Below are positions 47,818-63,219 of a stretch of 64,000 nt of DNA, piece by piece; positions within the stretch are counted from its first letter, which is position 1, and each line of letters opens with the position of its first letter. Under the pieces are notes generated by a model. It worked only from the letters and a program-made list of their open reading frames with translations, had not been told where the DNA came from and ran no database searches. This stretch comes from Methanotrichaceae archaeon. GTDB lineage: Archaea > Halobacteriota > Methanosarcinia > Methanotrichales > Methanotrichaceae. The translations under genes and the position numbers were made by a program. Location of the stretch: contig CAVWIG010000028.1 in the NCBI GenBank assembly GCA_963754945.1, positions 64,001 through 128,000 on the forward strand, in the 5' to 3' direction.

Positions 47818-50568
47818 TTATGTCCCCGCCCTCATCGCTTCTGCCCCAACCTTCAGCGCGTCATCCAGTTTACCCACATCCGGCCCACCTCCTTGCGCCA
47901 GTTCAGCCCTTCCTCCGCCTCCTCCACCTAGCACCTTTGCCGCAGACCTGATCATATTCCCGGCCTTGATCCCCCGCTCAAGCCCTGACTTGCCAACCGC
48001 CGCCACTAGCTTGCCGGTATCACTGCCCAGAAGGACAACATAATCCTGCTCCGCCAGCAAAGTGGCCGCCTTGATGAGGGCATCGATATCAGCGCCTCCC
48101 ATCTTTTGGACAACCACCTTCAAGCCGTCCATCGATTTTGCATCGGACGCCAGCGACTTCAACTGAACCCTGGCCAGATCCTCTTTCAACCGCTCGATCT
48201 CCTTTTGCTGGCCCTTCCACTCCTCGAAGAACCTGCTGGCTGACTTCGGAAGCTGCTCGGATGGCACTCGTAAAACACCCGCAGACTCCGTAAGCAGATC
48301 ATCCCTTGCCTGGCTGGCCCGAACGGCGGCCTCGCCTGCTGCAAACTCGATACGTTCAACGCCATCCTGGATACGCTCGGTGTGCAGGATCTTGATCGCT
48401 CCGATCATGCCGGTGTTGGTGACATGCGTTCCAGCGCACGCCTCGATGTCCGAGCCCACCCTCACGACCCGGATCTCGTTGCCCGGCGGGACGCCTCCCT
48501 GGTAGAGCTCGAAACCGAATATCTTCTCGGCCTCGGAACGAGGCAGGAACTGAGTGTCCACAGGTATGACCTCCATAACCCTGCGGTTGGCCTCTAGCTC
48601 GATGGCCTTCAGCTCCTGTTCTGTGATGCGCTTGAAGTGCGATAGGTCCAGACGGGCTCGGTCCTCGCTCTTCTGGGCACCGGCCTGCCAAATGTGCTTG
48701 CCTAAGACCCGTTTGGCCGAATCGTGGACCAGGTGAGTTGCCGTGTGGTGCCTGGCGTGGGCCAGACGCCTCTGCATGTCTACCCTGCCGGTTACACGGT
48801 CGCCTGGATTCAGCCCTCCGGCTGCCTTCACCAACTCAATCTCAAGCTTGTGAACAACTATGTCCCCGACCTTCTGGACATCTACAACTTGGAAGGTTAC
48901 GCCGCCTTTCTCCAGAGTTCCGTGGTCGGCCGGCTGGCCTCCGCCCTCCGGATAGAGCAGGGTCTTGTCCAGTATTATCGAGCCGTCCTCCAGGACGGTC
49001 TGCACCTTTGCCTCGAAGACCTGGTCAAAGGGATGGTCGTAGAACATAAGCTCTGTCTTCTCTCCGGGTATGGCAACCTGAGTGGTCTCCTCCTTCTCGG
49101 ACTTGAGATGAGTTGATGCAACCAGTGAATAGAAGTTGTCCGGCAGTTCGACTGAAGCTCCAATCTCCTCTGCCGATTCCCTGGTGATCTCTGGGGGTAT
49201 CCCGTGAGTATCGTAAAGGGAGATCATCTCCTTCAGAGGTATAGGTTGACCCAGCTTTGCGAAATGCTGGGCGGTCTTCTTGACCAGCTTCCTTCCCTTC
49301 TCAAGGGTCTCGGCGTACTTCTGCTCCTCTTGGCCCAGGATCTCGGAGATGGTCTGGAACCTTTCCTTCCAGTCGGGATAGTCGAGCCTGGAAATCTGCA
49401 TCTCGACCAGATCGGACAGCGGCATTCCGATCCCCAGATCCTTCATCTGTCGAAGTGTCCTTCTTATGACAAGCCTTGCGAGGTAACCAGCCTTGACGTT
49501 GGATGGGATTATCCCGTCGCCAAGCATGAAAGCCAGACACCTAGTGTGGTCCACAACAGCATAGACCCTCTCCATGGGAGCAATGATGCGCTCCAGCTTC
49601 TCGGGGGGTATTCCGATATTCCTGGCGATCTTCTCCCGGATCTCCTTCATGCTTGAATTGTCCAGGTCCACCATTCCCGCGAGCCTGGCATTCTGGGCGA
49701 AGATCTCGGCGTACTCCGGGTCCAACAGGTTATGCTCGACCCCAGCGAGGTCGGCTACCTTCCTCACGAGGTCCGGGAATATGGCGTCGTAGATGGTGGG
49801 CGTGCCCTTGGATGCCCAGACGAACCTCTCAAGGCCGTAGCCTGTGTCGACGATGTAGTTGTCCATCTTGCTGTAGCTCTCGCCCTTGATCTGGACGGGA
49901 CCTCCCGGAGTGACCTTCAGGTCCATGAAGACAAGCGTGGCCAGTTCGAGGCCAGCCACCATGCATTCAACGCTCGGGCCGGCGTTGCCACCGCCTGCCC
50001 AGGGGTTCTCTTTGTAGGTGACTGCCAATGGGTCCATTCCCAGGCCCAAAAACAGGTCGTCGCAGAGCTGGACAGTTCGGTCCTTCCAGTAGATCTCCCT
50101 CGACCTGGTGTTAAATACGTGGTGGGCCATCATCTCAAAGGTGGTGAGGTGCCGGCCACTTCGGCCCACGGAATCCAGATCGTCAAGCCTGATGCATGGC
50201 TGGCTGATAGTCAGGGGATTGGCCGGAGGTGGAACCTGACCGGAGGTCACAAAGGGCTGGAAGTCAGCGATCGATGCAATCGTGAGATAGATGTCGTCTC
50301 GCCACCGGGCTATTACCGGATACCTGGATATGCGCGTGTGGCCTCTGGCCTCGAAGTAGCTCAGGTAGTGCTCACGCATCTCGTCAAGGCTGTGCTCACG
50401 CTTGAACACGGGAGCGCCTATGAACGTGTAAGGATCGCAGGGTGGGTCGCCACAGGTCTTTCTGGCCGCATCTCTGGTCCAGAAGAACTTGCCGCAGCTT
50501 GGGCATTTCCGACGTTCGAACCCTCCGTCTGCGAAGAAATCCAATCGATACTCATCTTCGGAGAACAT
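47818..50568 (-). CDS. alaS: Alanine-tRNA ligase (archaeal type)
   Basis: ASIADFQP, QPCIR, DTGYGLER, DHTR, HTATH, EACAGTH, GGGGG. Confidence 0.97.
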   Translation of the reverse strand: MFSEDEYRLDFFADGGFERRKCPSCGKFFWTRDAARKTCGDPPCDPYTFIGAPVFKREHSLDEMREHYLSYFEARGHTRISRYPVIARWRDDIYLTIASIADFQPFVTSGQVPPPANPLTISQPCIRLDDLDSVGRSGRHLTTFEMMAHHVFNTRSREIYWKDRTVQLCDDLFLGLGMDPLAVTYKENPWAGGGNAGPSVECMVAGLELATLVFMDLKVTPGGPVQIKGESYSKMDNYIVDTGYGLERFVWASKGTPTIYDAIFPDLVRKVADLAGVEHNLLDPEYAEIFAQNARLAGMVDLDNSSMKEIREKIARNIGIPPEKLERIIAPMERVYAVVDHTRCLAFMLGDGIIPSNVKAGYLARLVIRRTLRQMKDLGIGMPLSDLVEMQISRLDYPDWKERFQTISEILGQEEQKYAETLEKGRKLVKKTAQHFAKLGQPIPLKEMISLYDTHGIPPEITRESAEEIGASVELPDNFYSLVASTHLKSEKEETTQVAIPGEKTELMFYDHPFDQVFEAKVQTVLEDGSIILDKTLLYPEGGGQPADHGTLEKGGVTFQVVDVQKVGDIVVHKLEIELVKAAGGLNPGDRVTGRVDMQRRLAHARHHTATHLVHDSAKRVLGKHIWQAGAQKSEDRARLDLSHFKRITEQELKAIELEANRRVMEVIPVDTQFLPRSEAEKIFGFELYQGGVPPGNEIRVVRVGSDIEACAGTHVTNTGMIGAIKILHTERIQDGVERIEFAAGEAAVRASQARDDLLTESAGVLRVPSEQLPKSASRFFEEWKGQQKEIERLKEDLARVQLKSLASDAKSMDGLKVVVQKMGGADIDALIKAATLLAEQDYVVLLGSDTGKLVAAVGKSGLERGIKAGNMIRSAAKVLGGGGGGRAELAQGGGPDVGKLDDALKVGAEAMRAGT

Positions 50569-50783
50569 CTTGATCAGCGGATTGGGAAGGATACAACAAC
50601 GCTAAAAGGCTTTCTCAGGAACAGTCACTCAGAATGTCAACTCCGGATTATCTTGTCCAAGGGGTCTAACAGGCTGAAAATCAAAACAGATCCTAAGAAA
50701 AGAATGATCTGGTAAAGAATCAGTCTTACGGAAGGAATGCGTGAATGGCCTGACGCTGAAAGCCCGGCCATCCCAGCAATCCC

Positions 50784-51401
50784 TTAGTTAACGCGTATGA
50801 CCTTCAGCAGCGAAACCACTGGCACCCCTGCGATCTCGTCAGTTCCCTTCTTGTCTATCAGCACAGCGATGGCGTTAATCTTGGCCCCGTGCTCGTCCAG
50901 GTACTCGACTGTCTCCTCCAGCGTGTGGCCTGAGGTTACCACGTCATCGATAATTACGCACTCCTTGTCATTGACGTCAGAGAAGTTTGCGCTCAGGTTG
51001 CCTCGCAGTTTCTTACCCTCTTGGGACAGCATCTGCTTGGACGGGGTGTAAACAGCCAGCTCGGCGGACAGATCATTGGCAACCATGCTTGCCAGGGGAA
51101 GACCGCTCAGAGCTATTCCAACTACTACATCCACACCGGAATCGCTTGATATAAGGCTCTCGTCAATGATGTCCGAAAGTGCCTGGGAGACGTGGCTCAA
51201 TCTATAGGCGGACTTGCCTATCATCGACCAGTCAACTGAGATGTCCTTAGGTCCCTGGCCGGTTCCCGTCGTTTCTGCATGGGTCAGCAGCCAGGTTACA
51301 GTCTCACTTGAGACGTTCAGCTCTTCCGAGATCTGGCCCTCCACCAGCCCCTCAGATTTCAGTTCGGTAGCCTTCTTAATCAATGTCTCAATGTTATTCA
51401 T
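50784..51401 (-). CDS. PyrE-like phosphoribosyltransferase with N-terminal HTH (GfcR-type)
   Basis: ISEELNVS.ET..WLL, PKDISVDWS, IIDDVVTSG. Confidence 0.85.
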   Translation of the reverse strand: MNNIETLIKKATELKSEGLVEGQISEELNVSSETVTWLLTHAETTGTGQGPKDISVDWSMIGKSAYRLSHVSQALSDIIDESLISSDSGVDVVVGIALSGLPLASMVANDLSAELAVYTPSKQMLSQEGKKLRGNLSANFSDVNDKECVIIDDVVTSGHTLEETVEYLDEHGAKINAIAVLIDKKGTDEIAGVPVVSLLKVIRVN

Positions 51402-51859
51402 TTTATCCTCCTCTTTTTCTTTCTGAAGGGAGTTCCGCAATCGGGGCAGGCCTCGCCTTCAAAGGTCGCGCCACACCCAAAGCACCTCAAAGTGTGCTTA
51501 ATCCTCTTCTTGATCAAAGGCTGCCCAATTGGCTCGATTGGGATTCCCAAGAAAAGCGCAACGTTCTGCACAGCATAGTCGTCCGTCGCAAGCCTCGCCT
51601 GGTACTCCAGTGCCTTGGCCAGGACCTCCAGGTCGGCCTGGGAGAGGACACGGATGTCGCCCGTCTCCTCGGCCGCTTTCGTGGCCCTCTTGAGGCTATC
51701 AGCGGTGGGGCTCTCCACTCGGGCCCCGCTGATCTGAAGAAGCAACCTCGAGCGGATGTCCTTTAACTCGCGCTCGACTGCAGGAACGGTGATCAGCTCT
51801 CCTTCCAGCCTCTTGCCCAGGATGAAGACAGACGAATCGACGACGATGCACGCACACAT
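51398..51859 (-). CDS. nob1: Nob1-like PIN/Zn-ribbon endonuclease
   Basis: VVDSS, LSQAD, TDDYAVQN, C.GC...CPDCG. Confidence 0.88.
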   Translation of the reverse strand: MCACIVVDSSVFILGKRLEGELITVPAVERELKDIRSRLLLQISGARVESPTADSLKRATKAAEETGDIRVLSQADLEVLAKALEYQARLATDDYAVQNVALFLGIPIEPIGQPLIKKRIKHTLRCFGCGATFEGEACPDCGTPFRKKKRRIK

Positions 51860-51941
51860 CCAGGGGTTCTTGGAAGTTATACTACTTGGATTTTTGCCCG
51901 GACCAAAACGCTATTATCATATGATGCTCTCGTGGAGTGGG

Positions 51942-52352
51942 ATGGCCAAGAACAGGAAAAAAGGCGGCAAATCCAAAGAAGACCAACAGATAGAGGAAAA
52001 GGGCAACAATGCCCCCCAGAACACTGCAATCAAGAGTCCAATGCCCAAGGCCAGGCCAAAGACGCCAGCAGAACGAAGGAAAATCCAGATTGACGGCATA
52101 AAGAAGACCGTTTACCCATCAATTCTCGGTGCGGCTGCAGGCTTTGCCTGCTTCTACAGCCCGAGCTTAATAAACCAGCTTCCGTGGCATTTCGTGTTGC
52201 TGATGGTCATAGGGGCAACCTATTTTGTTCAGAAGATGACGTATCCTTTCTTGGGGATAGACGCCGCCGATTTCAAAGGTAAGGACTGGTTTTATGTCGA
52301 GTTTATTGTGATCGACCTTTGGCTTGTTTCCTGGACAATGCTTCTGAACTAG
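51942..52352 (+). CDS. Small membrane protein upstream of RLI (archaeal EMC6-like)
   Basis: Three helices; C-terminal KDWFY......W..SWT.LLN. Confidence 0.7.
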   Translation: MAKNRKKGGKSKEDQQIEEKGNNAPQNTAIKSPMPKARPKTPAERRKIQIDGIKKTVYPSILGAAAGFACFYSPSLINQLPWHFVLLMVIGATYFVQKMTYPFLGIDAADFKGKDWFYVEFIVIDLWLVSWTMLLN

Positions 52353-52371
52353 GAGCTCAAAGGAGTCGGCC

Positions 52372-54132
52372 ATGAGAATAGCGGTAATAAATAGAGACAG
52401 ATGCCAGCCTCGGAAGTGTTCCAAGGAGTGCGAATACTTCTGCCCGCCGGTGCGCACAGGGGACGAGACCATAGTCTTCGAGGATAGCAAACCCCTGATA
52501 ACAGAGAGCCTGTGCGTGGGATGCGGGATCTGTGTTCGGAAGTGTCCTTTTGGAGCTATCACCATAACCAACCTTCCCGAGGAGATGGAGGCACCAGTTC
52601 ACAGATATGGCCAGAACGGATTCGCCCTTTACGGTCTGCCCATTCCTATGGAAGGAAAAGTAGCAGGAATCCTCGGACAAAACGGAATCGGAAAATCCAC
52701 CGCCATCTCCATTCTATCCGGAATACTGAAGCCCAACCTGGGCGGGAAAGCCTCATGGGATGAAGTCCTTGAGAGGTTTGCCGGATCTGCACTAGGCGAT
52801 TATCTCAAGAAGGTAGCAGACCAGGGAGTCAAGACCGCTTATAAACCTCAGTACGTGGACCGCATTCCCAAGAGCTACTCCGGCCCCGTCCGCGGACTTC
52901 TCGACCGCACCGACGAACGAGGTGCTCTGGAAGGTCTGGTGGAGACTCTGGGTCTCTCCAGGCTCATGGACAGAGAGATAAGCAGCCTCTCAGGGGGAGA
53001 GCTGCAGCGGGTGGCCATTGCGGCAACGGCAGCGCGCGATGCTGAATTCTACTTCTTCGACGAGATAAGTCCGTATCTGGACATCCATCAGCGCATAAAT
53101 GTGGCCAGGATACTGCAAAATCTGGCCGAAGGAAAGGCGGTCATGGTTGTCGAGCACGATCTCGCCCTCCTTGATCTTCTGGCGGAGAGCGTCCACCTGA
53201 TCTACGGAACGCCCGGTGCCTACGGTGTCATCACCCGGCCGAAAGGAGTCAGGATCGGGATCAATCAGTACTTGAAGGGCAACCTGCCCGAAGAGAACGT
53301 GCGGATAAGGTCCGAGGCTATTAAGTTCGAGGTGCACGCCCCGAGGATTGAGAAGGATGTTCCAACACTGGTGGAGTACGATGCCTTCAGCGTGGAGTAT
53401 CCTTCGTTCACCCTCAAGGCAGAGCCGGGCATCATTCGCAGCGGCGAGGTGGTTGGAATCCTGGGGCCTAACGGCATTGGAAAGTCCACTTACATCAAGA
53501 TCCTCGCCGGAGTGGAGAAGCCAACTACCGGCAACATCGACCTCAAGCTGAAGGTATCCTACAAACCACAGTACTTGAAGGCTGAATCGGACATGACAGT
53601 TCAGAGGCTGCTGAGGGAGACCACCCACGATTTCGACACCAGCTACTACCAGTCGGAGATCCTCCGGCCCATGGGGTTGGAGCCCCTTATGGACCAGAAC
53701 CTGATGGAGCTTTCGGGAGGCGAGCTGCAGCGGGTGGCAATTACGGCCTGCCTGTCGAGGGAAGCCGACATATACCTGCTGGACGAGCCGTCCGCTCACC
53801 TGGACGTAGAGCAGAGGATGCTGGCGGCAAAGGTGATGCGCCGGTTTGCCGAGTCAACGGAGCGATCCGTACTGGTTGTAGACCACGACATCTACCTGAT
53901 AGACCTCCTGTCGGAGAGGCTGATCGTCTTCGAAGGAGAGCCTGGGACCCTAGGAATCGCCTATCCTCCCTACGAGATGCGCGAGGGGATGAACGTCTTT
54001 TTAAAGGGCATCGGGATAACCTTCCGTCGGGACGAGGAGACCCGGAGACCCAGAGTGAACAAGCCTGGTTCCAGGCTGGACAGAGCTCAGCGAGATTCGG
54101 GCGAGTACTACTACCTCATTGAAGAAGCCTGA
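52372..54132 (+). CDS. rli: ABCE1/RLI ribosome recycling ATPase
   Basis: Fe-S cluster cysteines, two ABC domains (GIGKST, LSGGELQR), RPRVNK. Confidence 0.96.
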   Translation: MRIAVINRDRCQPRKCSKECEYFCPPVRTGDETIVFEDSKPLITESLCVGCGICVRKCPFGAITITNLPEEMEAPVHRYGQNGFALYGLPIPMEGKVAGILGQNGIGKSTAISILSGILKPNLGGKASWDEVLERFAGSALGDYLKKVADQGVKTAYKPQYVDRIPKSYSGPVRGLLDRTDERGALEGLVETLGLSRLMDREISSLSGGELQRVAIAATAARDAEFYFFDEISPYLDIHQRINVARILQNLAEGKAVMVVEHDLALLDLLAESVHLIYGTPGAYGVITRPKGVRIGINQYLKGNLPEENVRIRSEAIKFEVHAPRIEKDVPTLVEYDAFSVEYPSFTLKAEPGIIRSGEVVGILGPNGIGKSTYIKILAGVEKPTTGNIDLKLKVSYKPQYLKAESDMTVQRLLRETTHDFDTSYYQSEILRPMGLEPLMDQNLMELSGGELQRVAITACLSREADIYLLDEPSAHLDVEQRMLAAKVMRRFAESTERSVLVVDHDIYLIDLLSERLIVFEGEPGTLGIAYPPYEMREGMNVFLKGIGITFRRDEETRRPRVNKPGSRLDRAQRDSGEYYYLIEEA

Positions 54133-54393
54133 AAGGATCGCCAATAGATTCTGGCGCTCTTCTCTCAAGTTTTCGTCTCTACAAAGAGAGGAGCGGTTCA
54201 TTGCTATTGCTTACATTACATAGCACAGACTGAAACAAAAGAAGCGACAGAATATAATCGGGAAGGTTTTGAAGATCTAAAAACCTAAGAGATTAAAGAT
54301 TTAACAGGGCTCAAAAATCCACCCTGTTTTTGCCTATATTTTTGTATTACAGATTACAACCAAGACTTAGAAAAAGATCTAAGATAGATCTCT

Positions 54394-54564
54394 TTAAAAG
54401 CTTCTTCTGGGTGGCCTGTGCTTCTGGTAGCAATCGCTGCAATACACTGGCCTGGTCCCATCGGGCTGGAAGGGAACCTGGGTCTGCTTGCCACAATCTG
54501 CACAAACTGCATCGTGCATCTCTCTTGGGCCTCTGTTGAAGCCACCACGTCTTTCTCTATCCAT
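54394..54564 (-). CDS. CxxC-x17-CxxC zinc-finger small protein (56 aa), absent from the ORF track
   Basis: MDRERRGGFNRGPREMHDAVCADCGKQTQVPFQPDGTRPVYCSDCYQKHRPPRRSF. Confidence 0.9.
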   Translation of the reverse strand: MDRERRGGFNRGPREMHDAVCADCGKQTQVPFQPDGTRPVYCSDCYQKHRPPRRSF

Positions 54565-54829
54565 GCTAATTCACGTATCCTTTTGGATATATCCTGAGGA
54601 ACGCCCATGGTATATATATTAGTTTGCATTCCTGGCCTCCTCTGTGCAACAATCCCAAAAATGTTTGACCCTCATATTGCAACGTGAATAGTTCTGAGAA
54701 TATCGGCAAGTTATGTCAGCCACAACGTACAATGCCGTGCCTCTCTGTAGGAATATACTTCAGCATTGATTCGTTCCAATTTCGTCAAGCGTTTACCCTA
54801 AATACTTCCTCAGAGAATGTGTGAGTTTC

Positions 54830-54916
54830 AAGCGAAGGGACATTCTATCCCGTTAGACCGTTCGCCATCTGGTCCTCCGTATTAGTCCCTTCGCTTACCG
54901 TCTAACTCCTGATGGC
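54830..54916. ncRNA. Candidate structured RNA element with three crossing helices
   Basis: Complementary pairs 54830-41/54885-96 (12/12), 54852-61/54897-906 (9/10), 54864-72/54908-16 (8/9). Confidence 0.4.
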
Positions 54917-55005
54917 TTAGATCTTTCGGTTTGCTCGATTCTTGAACCGTTCAACTATATTCAGCGCTCGGCTGCGAGAAGGTTCTGGAGTAGACATGCC
55001 AATCG

Positions 55006-55016
55006 ATATTTATATG
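55006..55016. promoter_or_regulatory. TATA-like box, possibly bidirectional
   Basis: TATTTATATG about 22 nt before the EndoQ ATG; reads CATATAAATA on the minus strand. Confidence 0.5.
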
Positions 55017-55036
55017 GAACTGCTCATTGGGGACTG

Positions 55037-56233
55037 ATGAAGATAAACGCAGATCTCCACATTCACTCTAAGTATTCAGCAGCGGTATCGCGTGACATGG
55101 ACTTGCCGGATATCGCCAGAGAAGCCAAAAAGAAAGGCGTTGGGATCGTTGGCACCGGAGACTGTCTTCATTTCAAGTGGCTTCAGGGGATAAAGGCCCT
55201 CCCGGAAAGCGATGGCCTCTTTACTCTGGACGGCACACGCTATGTTTTGACAGTAGAGGTCGAAGACTCACACCGGGTTCACCACCTGATAATCCTGCCG
55301 GATGTTGCCAAGGCAATGGAACTCAGAGAGAGGTTTGCTGGAAGGACAACTTCCCTTGACTCCGACGGCCGACCCAAGCTTCATATGAACGGTGCAGAGA
55401 TAGCCGATGTCGTAATCGAGGCTGGCGGCCTGATCGGTCCCAGCCATGCCTTTACACCCTGGACAGGAATGTACGCAGCATACCGATCGCTTAGAGAGTG
55501 CTACCAGGAGCACGCCGACAGAGTCACGTACATCGAGCTTGGTCTCTCGGCAGACACAGACTACGCGGATAGAATTGCTGAGCTTTCCACAAAGACTTTT
55601 CTTTCAAACTCGGACGCTCACTCCCCCAGGTCCAATAAGCTTGCCAGGGAGTTCAATCAGCTCGAAATACAGAACCTGAGCTATGAGGACCTCCGCGATG
55701 CCCTAACCAGGGAGAAAGGAAGGCGTGTCACATTGAACGTCGGGTTCTATCCCGAAGAGGGCAAGTACAACCGAACAGCATGCACCAGATGCTACCGGCA
55801 GTACACGGCTGATAAGATGGATGAGCTGCAGGGCAGGTGTCCAGAATGCAGTGGCCAGATAAAGCTAGGGGTAAGGGATAGGGTAGAATCCCTGGCCGAT
55901 TTTGCGGAGCCTGTGCACCCGGACCATCGTCCGCCTTATCTCCACCTCATACCTCTGGCGGAGATCATCGCCATGGCTCTCGGCATCAAGAGTGCCCTGG
56001 CCGTTGGCGTGCAGCGACGCTGGAATGAGCTCGTTGAGGGCAGAACGGAGATAGAGGTGCTGATGCAGGCCGAACTCTCCGAGCTGGAGGCTGAGCCCAA
56101 GGTGATCGAGGCAATCGAGGCATTTCGGACTGGAAAGGTGATAGTCAAACCAGGAGGCGGAGGGAAGTACGGAGAGGTAACGCTTCCTGAGCAATCCCAA
56201 AGTCGAGAGCAGAAGTGCCTGTTCGACTTTTGA
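55037..56233 (+). CDS. Endonuclease Q family PHP nuclease (TIGR00375-like)
   Basis: DLHIHSKYS, GTGD, HAFTPW, ELGLSAD, SNSDAHS, GKY...C..C, GGGGKYG. Confidence 0.88.
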   Translation: MKINADLHIHSKYSAAVSRDMDLPDIAREAKKKGVGIVGTGDCLHFKWLQGIKALPESDGLFTLDGTRYVLTVEVEDSHRVHHLIILPDVAKAMELRERFAGRTTSLDSDGRPKLHMNGAEIADVVIEAGGLIGPSHAFTPWTGMYAAYRSLRECYQEHADRVTYIELGLSADTDYADRIAELSTKTFLSNSDAHSPRSNKLAREFNQLEIQNLSYEDLRDALTREKGRRVTLNVGFYPEEGKYNRTACTRCYRQYTADKMDELQGRCPECSGQIKLGVRDRVESLADFAEPVHPDHRPPYLHLIPLAEIIAMALGIKSALAVGVQRRWNELVEGRTEIEVLMQAELSELEAEPKVIEAIEAFRTGKVIVKPGGGGKYGEVTLPEQSQSREQKCLFDF

Positions 56234-56280
56234 TGGCACAGATCCTATCTGATTTGACCGATGAATCCTTTTGACTTTTT

Positions 56281-59200
56281 CTATGGAATCTCCCCATCAG
56301 ATGATTCGCTGAATGCGGGACACGGACCTGGACATTCTGCCAGAGCCTCCTGGTTCCAGTTGTAATCGGAAGGGGGTTCATTGGGGCAAATAACCTCTGT
56401 GCAGGATGAGTCCTTCCCGCTCTTGCCTGGCTTTCCCGGCGTCGGCCCGACCACCACTTCAGCGCTGGCCTCTGCAGACACGGATCCCTGGCCGTGCACC
56501 AGAATGGCATCCACATGGACCAGACCAATGAACTTGCCATCTCGTGAAGCTTCGGCTCTGTAGGTTATGGAGCGTTGCACGCCCGGTGCCAGGTCCATGG
56601 TCATCCATTTCACAGCGTTTTGGCTTTGCTTTGAGGGCACCATTGATGAGTTGAGAAATCTCATACCGTCGGGAATGTGGTCAGTAATCACGGTCGTCAT
56701 GGTGCTTTTGGCTCTATTCTTGAGGGTGATGTTGTACCACACTATGGTTTTCTTAAGCGGATCAATCCTCGCTGTCTCTGTCAGATCGATCTCCGGAGGA
56801 CAACAGCCAAGCCAGCTTTTTTCAATAGTCGATATGTTGCTGGCGGTGACCAATTTATCGCCGTATTCGCCGGCCACCTTTACCCTGTTGACCAGATCGG
56901 AGTCCGGCTCGGCCTTCAGCCACAAGCCAATGGTGATTGAGCTGCCGATGCCCAAGTTCATCAGAGTCCAGTTGGCTCGCCCGGAGTCCGTCTTTATCGG
57001 CATGATTGAGGAGTTGATGAACTCCGTTCCGGGAGGTAATAGGTCCGTGATGCGAACTGGACCTAAAGCTGTGTTGCCGTCGTTATGAACATTGATTTTG
57101 TACTCTGCTACCGTGATGTTTACATCATTGATTCTTTCCGTCTTGGTTTGCCCTTCTTTGATAACCGAAATATGAGGTCGGTCAAAACTCGCCACGCCTT
57201 TGAGCAGCAGATTGCGTTTAATGGAGAAGACTCCGTTGTTCTCCTGGTCCAGCTTCAGATTGTCGCCTGATCGGGCACCGAATCTGGCCCTTCCTGAGAA
57301 GTCTGCCTCTGTCTCCATCTGGTTCAGGCCTTTGGCTGTAGTCGTTTTCTTAAGGCGTTGGATGTCTTCGAACTCCTCCACGATATATCCAGTGTCCTTT
57401 ATTTTGGACCACATCCCTTCCTTCCATCCTGCCGAAGCGGTAATGTTCATTCTCGACATGTAGCCATACCGTACTGGACGGCAGTTCAGGAGGATCTTCT
57501 TATCCATGAAGCTGGTTGGAGTGTCTATCAGCTCCTCAATCCGGTAGTCTCCAGATCCCGACTCGTAAGTCCTCTGGCTCAGGCGGATGTGTTTGTCTGC
57601 GTTCACGGAACCTGTGCCATTTGCTGATTCATTCATCCGGACATCCTCGCCGTACTCGTTTACGTCCTGGAAAACTCTAAAGCGTCCCGCGTAGTGATCT
57701 CTGGATTCGAAAGTCAGACATCCGGTCTCCGCCACCGACTTTCGCAGAAATCCCAGATGGGCATCGCCTTCGAAGTCTGTTCTGACAGCGATATCCGTGC
57801 CATTTTTGTCCAGTTTGATCTTGCTTTTGTGCTCGATCTTATCGGCATAGCGGTACGATTCTTCCGTGGATGTGCCCGAGATTCGGTTCTTGGCTATCGT
57901 TCGATCGGACCATTTTGACCTGAAATGCGCAATCCTGTTTCCCGGCAGTGCAAACGTGGTTGGCTTTGTTCTCGCCGACAGGATCTTTTCGACTTCTACC
58001 GACCTGTTCTTAGAATGGAGCTGCAGGATCGCCTTACTGGAATAACTGCCGCTTCCATGTTCGTTAGCTTGCAGTTCAGTCCCCGGGGCGCTCGATATTG
58101 TGACCTTCTCGTTAGCATGACCCTCGAAATCTTCGGCGGTAACGTAGACCTGGTTGTTCAAATAATGCTGTTCCTGGGTCGTAGAGAATTTGTTGGCGAC
58201 ATTGACAAAGCCATCTCCGACTATCTTTTGATCTGCGTTGAAGTTGATCTCGGATACAGGCACTCTGACAGTAAGAATGATGATCACTGATGAGCCTGGT
58301 TCAATCAGGCTGAAGTGCCAGACCCCGTTGCTATCTGGCAAGGGTGAGGCAGAAACGAACTCGATCCGGGAATCGAAATTGTCCCTTACAAGGACGTTCT
58401 TAACGGGGATTTTTCCAGTGTTGGCGAGTAGTATCGTATATATTATATCTTCTCCTGGACTGAACACCTTTTTAGATGCAGTCTTACTGACGGTTAGCAC
58501 TGGAGTCAGGGCATTTACCTTCGTAGAATTTGAACTAGCGAATTTGTAGCCGGTTGAGTTAACATTATAGGAGACTGTTACGCTGTTGTCCAATTCTCCA
58601 AACTTGCTTCCATCAATCGTTGCCACCAGCTTGGCCTGGGTTTTATCTCCTGGGGCGAGATCTACACGATTCGACCAAATGACTGTATTTCCCACATCGG
58701 ACCCAGCTGGATCGCTTGATACGTAGTTCAGTCCAGTAGGGAGGGAATCTGCAATGCCGGTCAATATGATGCTAGAGTTGCTAACGTTTTTAGAGTTTTT
58801 TGCCATTCGGTTTTCTATGCTTATGCCGAAAGTGATGTTTGATCCTTTAGGCCCTGAATCTGGCATGGCATCAATTAAAACCAATATTGGCGAAATGGAC
58901 TTTACAGTGACACTACCGGAGCCGTAGACGTAGTCGCCGATGTAGGGCTTTCCTGTTGCTATGACTATATTTTCTAGCTCGCCGAATATTGGTCCGTCAA
59001 TTTTTGCTTTGAGATGAATGGATGTCGACGATCCTGGACTTAGAGCAGAATTCGAGATATTGTTCCAGATAATCGTTCGGGACCCATTGCTGTTTATTTG
59101 ATTACTGTCCGGATCGATAGACGCAGATGAGTAGTTCAGCCCTGTGGGCAGGAGGTCTACAACCCTTAAGTCGTTGAGGTTCACCTCTCCAGTGTTGGTC

Positions 59201-62200
59201 AGCTCTATCATGAAGTCCACAGGTGTCTCTAAGCTGCCTGAGCTCGGAGTAGACGTTTCGACGACCTGGATAGCAGATCTGCAGGCGGTTACATTTTTCA
59301 GATCTTCTCCCGTGACATCGAAACCCGTTAGGGTGATGCCGGTCGCTACAACTCTGTTCTGTAGAGGCCCATGCTGTGTTCCATCCACCCAAGTGTACAA
59401 ATGAATTGTTGTGGACGAATTTGGGGCAAGGGGCACAGATAGTACATTGTTCCATGTCATATCTGTGGTTCCATCCGGATCAATTTTTTTCACGGATGGG
59501 GCGATGGATGCGGAAGAGAAGCTCAATCCTTTGGGCAACAGGTCCACCAGCTTAACTTCATCGAGATTGACATCCCCTGTGTTAATTATATCCATCTTAA
59601 AATCTATTATAGTTCCAAGGCTTCCGGATTCAGGAGTTGGTGTCAGGGCAATCTCAATAGCAGGAACGAAAGCGGTTATACTCCTCCTATCCTCTCCGGT
59701 TACATTGAACCCTTCCGATGTGCAGCCTGTGGCTGTGATTTTGTCCTGTAACAAACCCGACTGCGTCCCGTCTATTGTAGCAGCAAGATGGATCGATTTG
59801 GATGCATCCGGAGCGAGAGGCTCAGTTAAGACATTATTCCATGTGACTGAAGTAGTTTTATTATGATTGGCTCTTTTCTTGGTTGGATCGATGGATGCTG
59901 ATGAATATTTTAATCCCTTTGGCAGCAGATCCACAAGTTTGACAGCATCGAGATATGTATCTCCAGTGTTAGTGATATCTATCCTAAAATCTATCGAAGT
60001 ATCAAGACTTCCCGATTCGGGAGTTGATACTGCTACAACCTGGATAGCCGATTTGCAAGCAGTAATATTCACCTCATCCTCTGCGGTTATATCGTCCCCT
60101 GTCGGAATTGTTCCTGTAGCTGTGATGGTATTTTGGAGCGAACCTGACTGCATTCCGTCTATCTTCGAAACTAGATGGAACGATGTTGACGCGTTCGGAG
60201 TTAGCGGTGCAGTCAGGATGTTGTTCCATGTGACCGACGTACTTTTATTATGATGTACCGTCTTCTTGTCGGGATCAATTGATGCTGATGAATATTTCAA
60301 TCCTGTAGGCAGCAGATCCACGACCTTGACGGCATCCAGATTCACATCTCCCGTGTTGGTTATGTCTATCTTGAAATCCACTAGATTCCCAGGGCACCCC
60401 GACTCCGGTATAGGTGTCTCAGATACCTCGATTGCTGATCTGCGAGCTATGATATCTTTACTGATCTCTGTGGTTACGTTCGACCCCGTTAGAGGCTTTC
60501 CTGTGACAGTGACTGCATTTTGTAGCGGCCCAAATCGAGTCCCGTCTATAATGGCCGCCAAATGGATCGTTGCTGGTACGTTTGGTGGGAGCGTCGCAGT
60601 CAGTATGTTGTTCCAAGTGAGCGATGTATCGCCAGTGGCACCGAAGGTTCTTTCAGAAGGGTTGATGGATGCTGTTGAATAGCTCAATCCTTTGGGCAGT
60701 AGGTCGACCAACTTAAGAGATTCAAGGTTCACCTCTCCTGCGTTTGTTATATCTATCCTGAGGTCTACCGGGGTCCCGGGGACTCCCTGATCGGGTGAAG
60801 ATGTTAAAGAAACCAAGACGGCCGATCTATAAACCGTAATATTCTGTTCGCCCTCCGCGGTCACATTATACCCCGTTGGAGGTGTTCCCACAGCTATAAT
60901 TTTGTTTTGTATCGAGCCGCATTGGGTCCCATCTATCGCAGCGAACAGATGAATCGATGTGGACGCGTCAGGAGCCAGAGGGGCAGTCAGAAGGTTGTTC
61001 CATTCGATTGATGTTGTTCCATTGCCTTCGATCCTATTCCCTGTTGGGCTGATGGATGCCGACGAATATCTCAATCCTTTAGGCAGAATGTCTACCAGAT
61101 TAACTTCGTTTAGATCCACCTCTCCCGTGTTGGTCAGGTCTACCTTGAAGTCGACCAAGGTCCCAGAACTTCCCGAAGCTGGAGCCGGAGTCTCGACGAC
61201 CGCTATTGCCGATCTATAAGCGTTAATATCCTTCTTGTCTTCTACAGATACAATGGATCCATCCGGAGACGTTACATCGACCACAACGCTATTCTGAATA
61301 GTGCCTAACTTAGCACCATCTATCTCTGCACGAAGATGAATCGATGTGGAGTTGTCCGGAGCAAGGGGTCCAATCTGGATATTGTTCCAAGAGATTGTTG
61401 TAGTTCCATTGTCGTTGACTTTTTTCTCTACTGGATCAATGGATGCCGATCTGAACCTCAATCCTCTGGGAAATAGGTCGACCAACTTAAGGGATTCGAG
61501 GTTCACCTCTCCCGCGTTAGTCAGGTCTATCCTGAAATCCACCAAGGTCCCTGGGCTTCCAGAGTCTGGGGTGGCTGTTTCGGCCAGGTGAACGGCTGGC
61601 ATGAAGGCAGTTACACTCTTCATGTCGTTTCCTGTTACACTGAACCCCGCTTGAGTTAGGCCCTTGGCATAGATTTTGTTCTGCAGCGAACCCGAATGAC
61701 TTCCATCTATAACAGCAACGAGATGAATTGAAGCGGATGAGTTCGGTGCCAGAGGTGCTGCAAGGATGTTGTTCCATACGACTGAGGTTGTCCCATTCTC
61801 CTCGACCTTTTTCTCGGTTGGATCGACGGACGCGGATGAGTACCTCAATCCTTCGGGAAGCAGGTCTTCCAGGTTTATCGCGTTGAGATTGACGTCTCCT
61901 GTGTTGGTTATATCTATCTTGAAGTCAATGCTGCTTCCGGGAACGCCAGACTCCGGGATTAGTGTTTCGTTGACCTGTAATCCTGGCCTGTATGCGACCA
62001 ACTCTAACGAATCATCATCTGTGACGTTGCATCCGCCTGGAGGCCAGCCCGTGACTGTAGCCCTATTAACCAGAGTTCCATATTTCTGACCGTCGATCTT
62101 TGCGGTCAGGCGTACTGGAATCGAACTACCTGGGGAAAGATTGCCGAGATTGTCCCACTTTATCTTCCTGCCTAGTTCAGATCCTGCAGGATTGCTGGAG

Positions 62201-63219
62201 ATGAAGGTCAACCCTTCTGGAATAGTGTCAGTGAGTTCCAGGCGTAGAGACACTTCTCCTGTGTTCGAGATGTTGATAGCAAAATCAGTAATAGTACCTG
62301 GAGAACCCGATGATGGAGACACATTTTCGGATAGCTCAACCCCTGATCTAAGGGCCTGGACATTTGTACTGGTAGTGTTGACCACACGGTACGCATCTTT
62401 GGGCGGTTTGGCAATTAATCTCAGGCTGTCCGTTAGCTGGCCGAATGCCTCTCCGGTCATTCGAGCCTTCAACGTTATTATCTTTGGGTCTGTTTTGATG
62501 GGTCCCAAATTGTTCCAGGTAAGGTTGGTGGTACCGTTATCGTAAATGATGGTTGAATTAGGGGCTGGAACGGCACTTCCAGTGACGTAGCTTAATCCTT
62601 TAGGCAGGAAGTCGGAGAACCTAACCGAGCTGAAGCTATCCTCTCCGGTGTTGAGGACTTTGATGGAATAGGTCAATTCAGCGCAGGAAGCTCCTGATGA
62701 AGGCGACGCCGATTCGACGATTCTTATATTAGGTTTTAGAACGGTCACGCTGTAAGATTTGGAGGCGAGTACTGCTTTTCCAGTCTGATCCTTGCCGGTT
62801 ACTGTAGCGTAGTTCACTACAGGACCGAAGACTCTTCCATTTCTTGTGCCTCTGGGGTATACCGTCTTGTTGCCCCCGGATTTCATATTTCCAATGTTCC
62901 AGGTTATTGTGGAGGACCCGTTCTCATTCAGGGTATTGCTGGAAGGTGTCAGAGTGGATCCAGTAAAGGTAATGCCGTTTGGCATGAGATCTGTAAGAAC
63001 CACAGAACTCAGATTACTATCGCCAGTATTTATTATGTATATCTCGAAGTTGGAGCTTGCTCCTGGGGACCCCGTCGGATAGCCTGTTGAGGACACGGTC
63101 TTGGCAATGCTAAGGCTTGGGGCGGCACCAGCCGCTTGGATCCAGAGGCAAAATGGAGGAGATATCAGGAGCAATATCACAAGCAACCTGATCGTCGATA
63201 CAGTTTTGTCTGTGGTCAT
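56281..63219 (-). CDS. Giant secreted surface protein (2312 aa) with about 15 DUF11/Ig-like repeats
   Basis: Signal peptide; repeats of F.I.ITNTG...L..V.L.D.LP.GL with a 387-nt period; about 320-aa non-repeat domain near the C-terminus. Confidence 0.9.
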   Translation of the reverse strand: MTTDKTVSTIRLLVILLLISPPFCLWIQAAGAAPSLSIAKTVSSTGYPTGSPGASSNFEIYIINTGDSNLSSVVLTDLMPNGITFTGSTLTPSSNTLNENGSSTITWNIGNMKSGGNKTVYPRGTRNGRVFGPVVNYATVTGKDQTGKAVLASKSYSVTVLKPNIRIVESASPSSGASCAELTYSIKVLNTGEDSFSSVRFSDFLPKGLSYVTGSAVPAPNSTIIYDNGTTNLTWNNLGPIKTDPKIITLKARMTGEAFGQLTDSLRLIAKPPKDAYRVVNTTSTNVQALRSGVELSENVSPSSGSPGTITDFAINISNTGEVSLRLELTDTIPEGLTFISSNPAGSELGRKIKWDNLGNLSPGSSIPVRLTAKIDGQKYGTLVNRATVTGWPPGGCNVTDDDSLELVAYRPGLQVNETLIPESGVPGSSIDFKIDITNTGDVNLNAINLEDLLPEGLRYSSASVDPTEKKVEENGTTSVVWNNILAAPLAPNSSASIHLVAVIDGSHSGSLQNKIYAKGLTQAGFSVTGNDMKSVTAFMPAVHLAETATPDSGSPGTLVDFRIDLTNAGEVNLESLKLVDLFPRGLRFRSASIDPVEKKVNDNGTTTISWNNIQIGPLAPDNSTSIHLRAEIDGAKLGTIQNSVVVDVTSPDGSIVSVEDKKDINAYRSAIAVVETPAPASGSSGTLVDFKVDLTNTGEVDLNEVNLVDILPKGLRYSSASISPTGNRIEGNGTTSIEWNNLLTAPLAPDASTSIHLFAAIDGTQCGSIQNKIIAVGTPPTGYNVTAEGEQNITVYRSAVLVSLTSSPDQGVPGTPVDLRIDITNAGEVNLESLKLVDLLPKGLSYSTASINPSERTFGATGDTSLTWNNILTATLPPNVPATIHLAAIIDGTRFGPLQNAVTVTGKPLTGSNVTTEISKDIIARRSAIEVSETPIPESGCPGNLVDFKIDITNTGDVNLDAVKVVDLLPTGLKYSSASIDPDKKTVHHNKSTSVTWNNILTAPLTPNASTSFHLVSKIDGMQSGSLQNTITATGTIPTGDDITAEDEVNITACKSAIQVVAVSTPESGSLDTSIDFRIDITNTGDTYLDAVKLVDLLPKGLKYSSASIDPTKKRANHNKTTSVTWNNVLTEPLAPDASKSIHLAATIDGTQSGLLQDKITATGCTSEGFNVTGEDRRSITAFVPAIEIALTPTPESGSLGTIIDFKMDIINTGDVNLDEVKLVDLLPKGLSFSSASIAPSVKKIDPDGTTDMTWNNVLSVPLAPNSSTTIHLYTWVDGTQHGPLQNRVVATGITLTGFDVTGEDLKNVTACRSAIQVVETSTPSSGSLETPVDFMIELTNTGEVNLNDLRVVDLLPTGLNYSSASIDPDSNQINSNGSRTIIWNNISNSALSPGSSTSIHLKAKIDGPIFGELENIVIATGKPYIGDYVYGSGSVTVKSISPILVLIDAMPDSGPKGSNITFGISIENRMAKNSKNVSNSSIILTGIADSLPTGLNYVSSDPAGSDVGNTVIWSNRVDLAPGDKTQAKLVATIDGSKFGELDNSVTVSYNVNSTGYKFASSNSTKVNALTPVLTVSKTASKKVFSPGEDIIYTILLANTGKIPVKNVLVRDNFDSRIEFVSASPLPDSNGVWHFSLIEPGSSVIIILTVRVPVSEINFNADQKIVGDGFVNVANKFSTTQEQHYLNNQVYVTAEDFEGHANEKVTISSAPGTELQANEHGSGSYSSKAILQLHSKNRSVEVEKILSARTKPTTFALPGNRIAHFRSKWSDRTIAKNRISGTSTEESYRYADKIEHKSKIKLDKNGTDIAVRTDFEGDAHLGFLRKSVAETGCLTFESRDHYAGRFRVFQDVNEYGEDVRMNESANGTGSVNADKHIRLSQRTYESGSGDYRIEELIDTPTSFMDKKILLNCRPVRYGYMSRMNITASAGWKEGMWSKIKDTGYIVEEFEDIQRLKKTTTAKGLNQMETEADFSGRARFGARSGDNLKLDQENNGVFSIKRNLLLKGVASFDRPHISVIKEGQTKTERINDVNITVAEYKINVHNDGNTALGPVRITDLLPPGTEFINSSIMPIKTDSGRANWTLMNLGIGSSITIGLWLKAEPDSDLVNRVKVAGEYGDKLVTASNISTIEKSWLGCCPPEIDLTETARIDPLKKTIVWYNITLKNRAKSTMTTVITDHIPDGMRFLNSSMVPSKQSQNAVKWMTMDLAPGVQRSITYRAEASRDGKFIGLVHVDAILVHGQGSVSAEASAEVVVGPTPGKPGKSGKDSSCTEVICPNEPPSDYNWNQEALAECPGPCPAFSESSDGEIP

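Follow-up and report, generated by a model that had tools for sequence, protein, structure and literature searches.

A predicted multicopy hairpin RNA family at a locus with crossing complementary segments in an acetate-using methanogen lineage

Genes and features at the locus

The window is the whole stretch of DNA that was analysed, 64,000 nt of a Methanotrichaceae archaeon (contig CAVWIG010000028.1, positions 64,001 to 128,000), and the element under study occupies 87 nt of it (54830-54916). The flanking genes encode an RLI-type ABC ATPase, a 56-aa CxxC-x17-CxxC protein and a TIGR00375-family protein, which the first-pass annotation called EndoQ. The first-pass annotation had set the element between a CxxC-x17-CxxC gene and a TATA-like box near 55010. 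Both were found: the gene lies at 54394-54564 on the minus strand and belongs to TIGR04272 and PF23477, and the box reads TTTATAT. This box was kept with the TIGR00375-family gene in the ortholog of genome G002. Its distance from the start codon suggests a leaderless or near-leaderless mRNA for that gene. The coordinates of all features are listed in Table 1.

The arrangement in genome G001 was informative. There the RNA module, corresponding to 54626-54944 of the window, was 90% identical although both flanks were replaced. A 1.36-kb insertion with a DUF4411 gene parts the Zn-finger gene from the module, and a convergent IS1-like transposase fragment follows the module. The AT-rich stretch at 54610-54622 stays with the Zn-finger gene, and the synteny break falls at window position 54626-54635. 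Since the module is intact despite its replaced flanks, it appears to be autonomous. According to the annotation, the element could sit in a long leader of the Zn-finger gene, on the minus strand, or be a separate small RNA. The leader is disfavoured by the G001 insertion, by a promoter on the plus side and by the box at 55009-55015, which better fits the TIGR00375-family gene. A separate small RNA unit is supported, and its predicted strand is plus.

Two minor observations concern the surroundings. The G001 insertion (L011:141-1501) also holds a 180-aa ORF without a family, and the transposase fragment lies at L011 1834-2514. On the minus strand of the window, 56281-63219 is a 2312-aa ORF with many similar repeats of about 100 aa and a signal-like N-terminus, which looks like a giant surface protein.

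Table 1. Positions in the window of the predicted RNA unit and of two neighbouring promoter-like boxes
Feature	Position	Strand	Remarks
Promoter: AGCG (54788-54791) and TATA-like box TAAATACT (54799-54806), core AAATAC (54800-54805)	54787-54806	+	Conserved
Box-to-start stretch: AATGT (54816-54820), TTTC (54826-54829)	54816-54829	+	Conserved in alignments
Predicted transcription start	A54830	+	Box-to-stem spacing; pyrimidine at -1, purine at +1
Helix A, 5' arm AAGCGAAGGGAC	54830-54841	+	12/12 pairing with 54885-54896
43-nt loop with B (54852-54861) and C (54864-54872)	54842-54884	+	54852-54881 nearly invariant
Anti-start/anti-SD stretch GCCATCTGGTCCTCC: CAT (54866-54868), CCTCC (54874-54878)	54864-54878	+	Loop sequence
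Helix A, 3' arm GTCCCTTCGCTT	54885-54896	+	Repeat finder, covariation and ortholog comparison
Variable tail with B' (54897-54906) and C' (54908-54916)	54897-54916	+	Ortholog and RNA-library variants
Conserved tail end TTAGATCTTTCGGTTT, T-runs (54924-54926, 54930-54932)	54917-54932	+	Invariant in 6 orthologs; presumed termination region
TATA-like box TTTATAT	55009-55015	+	21 nt before ATG (55037) of the TIGR00375-family gene; outside the RNA unit
AT-rich TATA-like stretch	54610-54622	-	Proximal to the Zn-finger gene (ATG 54564); outside the RNA unit

Three complementary pairs and their frequency in shuffled sequence

A repeat finder recovered the three complementary pairs on which the first-pass annotation had built its reading, at the positions given in Table 1. 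Helix A pairs at all 12 positions, helix B at 9 of 10 and helix C at 8 of 9. The partner strands A', B' and C' make up a 32-nt block (54885-54916) and follow one another in the order of their counterparts, which is the crossing order. A' and B' directly adjoin (0 nt), and a 1-nt linker separates B' from C'.

The shuffling that the annotation had asked for was carried out as a post hoc test in which helix A was taken as given and the 43-nt loop and 44-nt tail were shuffled 5000 times with their dinucleotides preserved. At least one loop-tail helix of 8 or more positions with no more than 1 mismatch arose in 874 of the 5000 shuffles, and a loop-tail helix with at least 9 matches arose in 42. Two non-overlapping loop-tail helices were seen in 18 shuffles, and two in the same crossing order in 8, so the pattern goes beyond chance. 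The loop-tail duplex of the window reached -19.8 kcal/mol against a shuffle mean of -11.4 kcal/mol (z -2.75), a value that 0.7% of 300 shuffles equalled. The crossing pattern is real in the window strain and exceeds chance; it is not a conserved structure.

A multicopy family of hairpins

BLAST, nhmmer and motif searches identified paralogs of the element in the same genome, two each on contigs C29 and C18 and one each on C53, C22, C35 and C39. The genome of the window holds at least 8-9 copies, and family copies were also found in related genomes, in three related genera in all. Members consist of an AAATAC box, the 5' arm AAGCGAAGGGAY, a variable loop and a matching 3' arm. When the pattern AAATAC-N24-AAGCGAAGGGA was searched with 0-1 mismatches, it was confined to genera g1 and g4 and a single genome of g2.

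A covariance model, R1, was built from 24 members, which match it by construction. The model gave 34 matches, which represent 31 loci, 7 of them new, and 7 of 105 genomes of the taxonomic family carried at least one. All three genomes of the window's genus and all three of g4 were positive, as was 1 of 59 g2 genomes. R1 had 0 matches in 76 genomes from four other families of the class. The window copy, itself a training sequence, scored 76.6 bits (E 2e-19).

Copies are in tandem or clustered in the window's genome on C29, C18 and C35. Clusters were also seen in G041 (L080, C25:5600-7000), with at least 5 hairpins in 1.3 kb, and in G019 (L045, C1:278100-279200), with 3 hairpins in 1.1 kb; most hairpins of these two clusters have their own AAATAC box. 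The spacing between the arms ranges from 25 to 143 nt across copies. The copies on C18 and C35 lie near contig ends, and other copies adjoin unrelated genes in varied orientation.

Two peculiarities of single copies were recorded. The 143-nt loop belongs to C18:194719-194885 (G000; locus L055:1345-1511, minus strand) and includes an inverted repeat of 14 bp of its own, which gives the appearance of a secondary insertion; R1 misses this copy. The tails of the C53- and C29b-type paralogs (L003:1440-1500, minus strand; L002:1596-1660) carry a second hairpin, GAGGNCCAG...CTGGNCCTC. Its arms are an SD-like stretch and a second anti-SD stretch, and a pyrimidine run comes after it.

The annotation had not recognised the element as a known RNA family and had named Rfam as a check; region 54300-55200 gave 0 Rfam matches up to E=10. 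ARAGORN reported 0 tRNA or tmRNA genes in 50000-60000, the stem pattern had 0 matches in viral contigs, and no box C/D arrangement was seen by eye. The element is apparently one copy of an undescribed family of small hairpin RNA genes in this methanogen lineage. We hold with good confidence the part of this explanation that concerns the gene, its family and helix A.

Conservation of helix A

The family stem AAGCGAAGGGAY/RTCCCTTCGCTT is a terminal helix of 12 bp whose pairing is kept through sequence changes and is complete in the window. Among the 24 members, 23 of them distinct, 90.9% of 276 cells were paired. Double-sided changes were found at 4 of the 12 pairs, in 12 cells. The covariation score was reached by 0 of 500 shuffles, and slid controls were only 37-53% paired. 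Among 6 orthologous sequences, helix A was without any change. Wobble pairs in the stem comprised 12 G:U versus 13 A:C. Besides its pairing, the stem is also strongly conserved in sequence; therefore, structure is not the sole constraint on helix A.

For 54830-54935 read as plus-strand RNA, the fold has helix A as its dominant helix and an energy of -32.3 kcal/mol (z -3.38). The minus strand of the element folds better, to -37.1 kcal/mol (z -4.19). Of the three proposed helices, only A survives comparison, as the terminal stem of a predicted small RNA.

Helices B and C in orthologs and paralogs

Six orthologs of the window copy were compared, namely the window, genomes G001 and G002, and three metagenome loci that were anchored solely on A, A' and four tail bases. 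Covariation across orthologs, another of the checks proposed beforehand, gave 0 compensatory changes for both B and C in the six sequences. The third pair of B (T:A) was unpaired in 4 of 6 orthologs, and the second pair of C (C:G) was intact in the window only (1 of 6). The isolated helices of the window had energies of -8.2 (B) and -11.1 kcal/mol (C), compared with -4.1 to -5.3 and -3.4 to -3.5 kcal/mol, respectively, in the other five orthologs. For both helices, pairing was best in the window copy.

The two strands of these helices also differed in variability. Among the six orthologs, 7 of 13 positions were variable in the tail (54904-54916) versus 2 of 19 in B plus C, and none of the changes was compensated. 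Variants in the RNA-library contigs fell at 54904, 54908, 54915 and 54916, which are the same variable tail positions. Such unequal constraint on the B/C and B'/C' strands is not expected of a selected helix. Loop-tail complementarity that no more than 5% of shuffles equalled was present in 3 of 18 promoter-bearing members and is not a family trait; for the two genome orthologs, about 21% of shuffles were as good.

Folds forced to hold B or C reached -21.8 and -21.4 kcal/mol versus the optimum of -32.3 kcal/mol; this penalty of about 10.5-11 kcal/mol applies to nested folds only and is not the energy of a true pseudoknot. By geometry, linkers of 10 nt and 2 nt would need to bridge stacks of 22 and 9-10 base pairs. 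By kinetics, helix A would be expected to close before B' and C' are transcribed.

On a paralog of contig C29, a T-to-C change in a B-like pair was matched by an A-to-G change in the tail, and given this matched change there may be an old, weak loop-tail contact. The motif CCAT[CGA][ATC]G was found in the forward direction in 10 of 24 loops and 4 of 24 tails. Reversed, it occurred in the window tail and in one likely spurious match. A weak idea is that C' could be a small inverted copy of this family motif; the C' of the orthologs does not match the motif pattern. A proposal that four window-specific tail bases are all derived and pairing-improving was dropped, as the most distant ortholog, L091, also has A at 54904. 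The complementarity of B and C is specific to this copy and links motifs of the loop to a tail under little constraint.

Promoter, start and end of the predicted RNA

The AAATAC box lies exactly 24 nt 5' of the helix A arm and is invariant across the 6 orthologs. At this 24-nt spacing, 20 of the 24 aligned members carried a plus-side box with at least 5 of 6 positions matching, and 0 of 24 carried one on the opposite strand. The RNA is assigned to the plus strand because the promoter is conserved on one side only. An archaeal promoter whose predicted start is the first base of the stem is consistent with the box spacing and with the bases at -1 (pyrimidine) and +1 (purine). T-runs follow the hairpin in the paralogs at varying distance. 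Termination is presumed at the T-runs of the conserved tail end, which would give an RNA of about 100 nt.

Four RNA-library (metatranscriptome) records cover parts of the region as assembled contigs without strand. Contig X15 spans 54560-54617 and 54738-55021, and the others span 54718-54871, 54738-54866 and 54815-54968. All four begin 5' of the predicted start at 54830. The presence of the region in RNA libraries counts for a small RNA gene. These contigs may represent DNA carry-over, read-through or minus-strand RNA, and their upstream starts weigh against a clean plus-strand-only picture.

Two coding readings of the region were rejected. A frame of 22 codons that begins with the ATG at 54818 ends in GPPY*; owing to indels, the paralogs reach that end in another frame, so the frame is not conserved. 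On the minus strand, the mirror of 54864-54884 forms a mini-ORF with an SD, 5 nt, an ATG and 7 codons, and its peptide is not conserved in paralogs.

Loop sequence and proposed function

The loop core (54852-54881) contained 2 single changes among the 6 orthologs, and its flanks vary. Within it, GCCAUCUGGUCCUCC (54864-54878) is the exact mirror of an SD core GGAGG, a 5-nt spacer and AUG. The 16S rRNA of the same genome ends in ...GGATCACCTCCT, and GCCAUCUGGUCCUCC resembles this 3' end, CCTCCT. Across the family, CCTCC was found in 13 of 24 loops versus a shuffle mean of 2.4, and CCAT in 17 of 24 versus 5.5; the members are related, so neither set of counts is independent. GGAGG was found in 0 of 24 loops. 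CAU or CAC stands 3-5 nt before a CCUCC-type motif in 9 of 24 loops, with a spacing that differs by paralog type. A pyrimidine-rich loop with a CCUCC-type motif is a family trait that the window copy shares.

The proposed mechanism is as follows. A plus-strand RNA gene of about 100 nt, from about 54830 to 54932, would be transcribed from its own archaeal promoter. The predicted RNA would begin directly with the conserved 12-bp stem, which closes the variable pyrimidine-rich loop, and a fast-evolving tail 3' of the stem would end in the T-runs. The loop may pair with translation-initiation regions of mRNAs and thereby block the ribosome, and the terminal stem could serve as a stabilising or protein-recognised scaffold. 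As the loop mirrors SD, spacer and AUG and its motifs are enriched, pairing with initiation regions is the best-supported mechanism. We hold this anti-initiation-site mechanism, with its deduced target class and repression, as a serious but tentative possibility. Taken as a whole, the explanation of the family as multicopy, self-promoted hairpin sRNAs that mask translation starts is probable in our estimate.

Candidate targets were searched for with the loop mirror, genome-wide, at up to 2 mismatches. The best matches, on contigs C4 and C21, lay inside ORFs of 815 aa and 319 aa, respectively, and not at starts. BLAST E-values in the search for trans targets were 0.1-5. A GGAGG-type site, read from the sequence, was absent at the starts of the adjacent Zn-finger and TIGR00375-family genes and of the paralog-adjacent genes.

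The paralogs differ in their start-codon complement (CAU or CAC) and spacer (3-5 nt), and each copy may thus address a different gene set. A more elaborate version would make the family scaffolded, natural anti-initiation-site RNAs whose copies silence different gene sets, with the tail of the window copy masking the seed; we regard this combination as rather unlikely. Its family-level part is likelier than its self-masking part. The latter, in which B' and C' of the tail would cover the loop seed and keep the RNA self-inhibited until released by a target or a nuclease, is improbable when taken alone.

Alternative explanations

The first-pass annotation read the 87-nt element as a multi-pseudoknot RNA or a switch between mutually exclusive conformers, A on one side and B/C on the other. 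The three pairs do exist, shuffles given A seldom yield two in crossing order (8 of 5000), the loop-tail duplex stands out (z -2.75), isolated B and C have respectable energies in the window, and the C29 paralog shows one T-to-C change in B with its matching A-to-G in the tail. However, a multi-pseudoknot is unsupported, with 0 compensatory changes in B or C, pairs broken in most of the 6 orthologs and weak B/C energies in the other five. The B'/C' strand varies far more than B and C (7/13 versus 2/19), the genome orthologs show no loop-tail excess over shuffles, and the linkers would be too short for stacked helices in an RNA whose helix A would close before B' and C' are made. The switch is likewise unsupported, as nested folds with B or C lose 10.5-10.9 kcal/mol relative to the optimum, which contains A. 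This reading is very improbable; because the loop mirrors a ribosome-binding site and only A is conserved, a translation-damping sRNA is more likely than a triple pseudoknot. Scarcely more probable is that the element lies within a minus-strand transcript, either a long Zn-finger leader or an antisense RNA, to which the RNA-library contigs with DNA 5' of the predicted start, the good fold of the minus strand and the TATA-like box at 55009-55015 could point. Against it, the Zn-finger start codon is preceded at 46-58 nt by an AT-rich box of its own, which stays with the gene in G001, where the 1.36-kb insertion parts both from the element, and the 55009-55015 box fits the plus-strand TIGR00375-family gene. 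The family box is seen solely on the plus side, at a constant 24 nt, other copies sit beside unrelated genes in varied orientation, and the RNA-library contigs are strandless and may be DNA.

A DNA-level feature, that is, a miniature mobile element or a recombinase- or protein-binding site made of 12-bp inverted repeats, would agree with the sequence conservation of the arms, their spacing of 25 to 143 nt, the position of the C18 and C35 copies near contig ends and the wobble pairs, which show no strand asymmetry. We judge it to be about as improbable as the minus-strand transcript. The interiors differ while a one-sided external promoter is kept at fixed spacing, the reverse of a miniature transposon. 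In addition, compensatory changes preserve the pairing, the loop motif is strand-specific (CCTCC in 13/24, GGAGG in 0/24) and viral contigs held 0 copies. Even less probability falls to a cis-acting leader of the TIGR00375-family gene, with a transcript running from 54830 into the gene at 55037. The two are on the same strand and 120 nt apart, and 54881-54889 is complementary at 8 of 9 positions to 55030-55038, across the start codon. Yet that gene has its own TATA box 21 nt before its ATG, the G001 module is followed by the convergent transposase fragment rather than by the TIGR00375-family gene, and the genes downstream of the paralogs are unrelated or distant.

Comparison with known systems

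The intergenic Methanosarcina mazei sRNA154 and sRNA41 are reported in a review to mask ribosome-binding sites via loops (PMC5867862). They are single-copy regulators tied to nitrogen status. Like these RNAs as described, the window copy has a loop complementary to an SD/start region (GGAGG-5 nt-ATG). Unlike them, the present family is multicopy, has a constant stem and variable loops, and occurs in a different methanogen family.

Bacterial sRNAs with C-rich loops, of the RsaE/RoxS type, expose pyrimidine motifs that pair with Shine-Dalgarno sequences and end in intrinsic terminators. The present family differs from them in being archaeal, in its scaffold and in its 0 Rfam matches. H-type pseudoknots and riboswitch platforms share with the element the crossing complementary segments, and part of the tail could alternatively pair with a downstream TTAGA. 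Unlike those structures, the crossing helices here lack covariation, have linkers of 0-2 nt and include no conserved junction resembling a ligand pocket. The family also differs from miniature inverted-repeat mobile elements, as its interiors are not homologous and its 5' flank, the promoter, is conserved. For the crossing-helix claim, the value of the analysis is a correction: the pattern is real in the strain and is not a conserved structure.

Methanogens of this lineage use acetate, rank among the main producers of methane and are difficult to cultivate. For this reason, to our knowledge, almost nothing is known of their RNA regulators. A literature search on small RNAs of Methanothrix/Methanosaeta listed no description. 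With about 31 defined loci, the family can be looked for in stranded metatranscriptomes.

A set of hairpin units at about 199,000-199,600 of the window's own contig, C28 (G000), about 71 kb beyond the window, offers the closest comparison. These units are likewise self-promoted and clustered, with the stem at the predicted start. They share with the present family a pyrimidine-rich loop, an ATCTAT-like loop start, and CAT followed by CCCTCC. They differ in their stem, which is of GGYAAAAGTC type versus AAGCGAAGGGAC, in their promoter sequence and in having no R1 match. By these sequence features, the present family is a second, sequence-distinct family of predicted hairpins of the C28-unit design. 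With two multicopy, self-promoted hairpin families whose loops mirror ribosome sites, masking of translation starts may be a common regulatory layer in this lineage. The shared loop motifs suggest that the C28 units and the present family may have a distant common origin.
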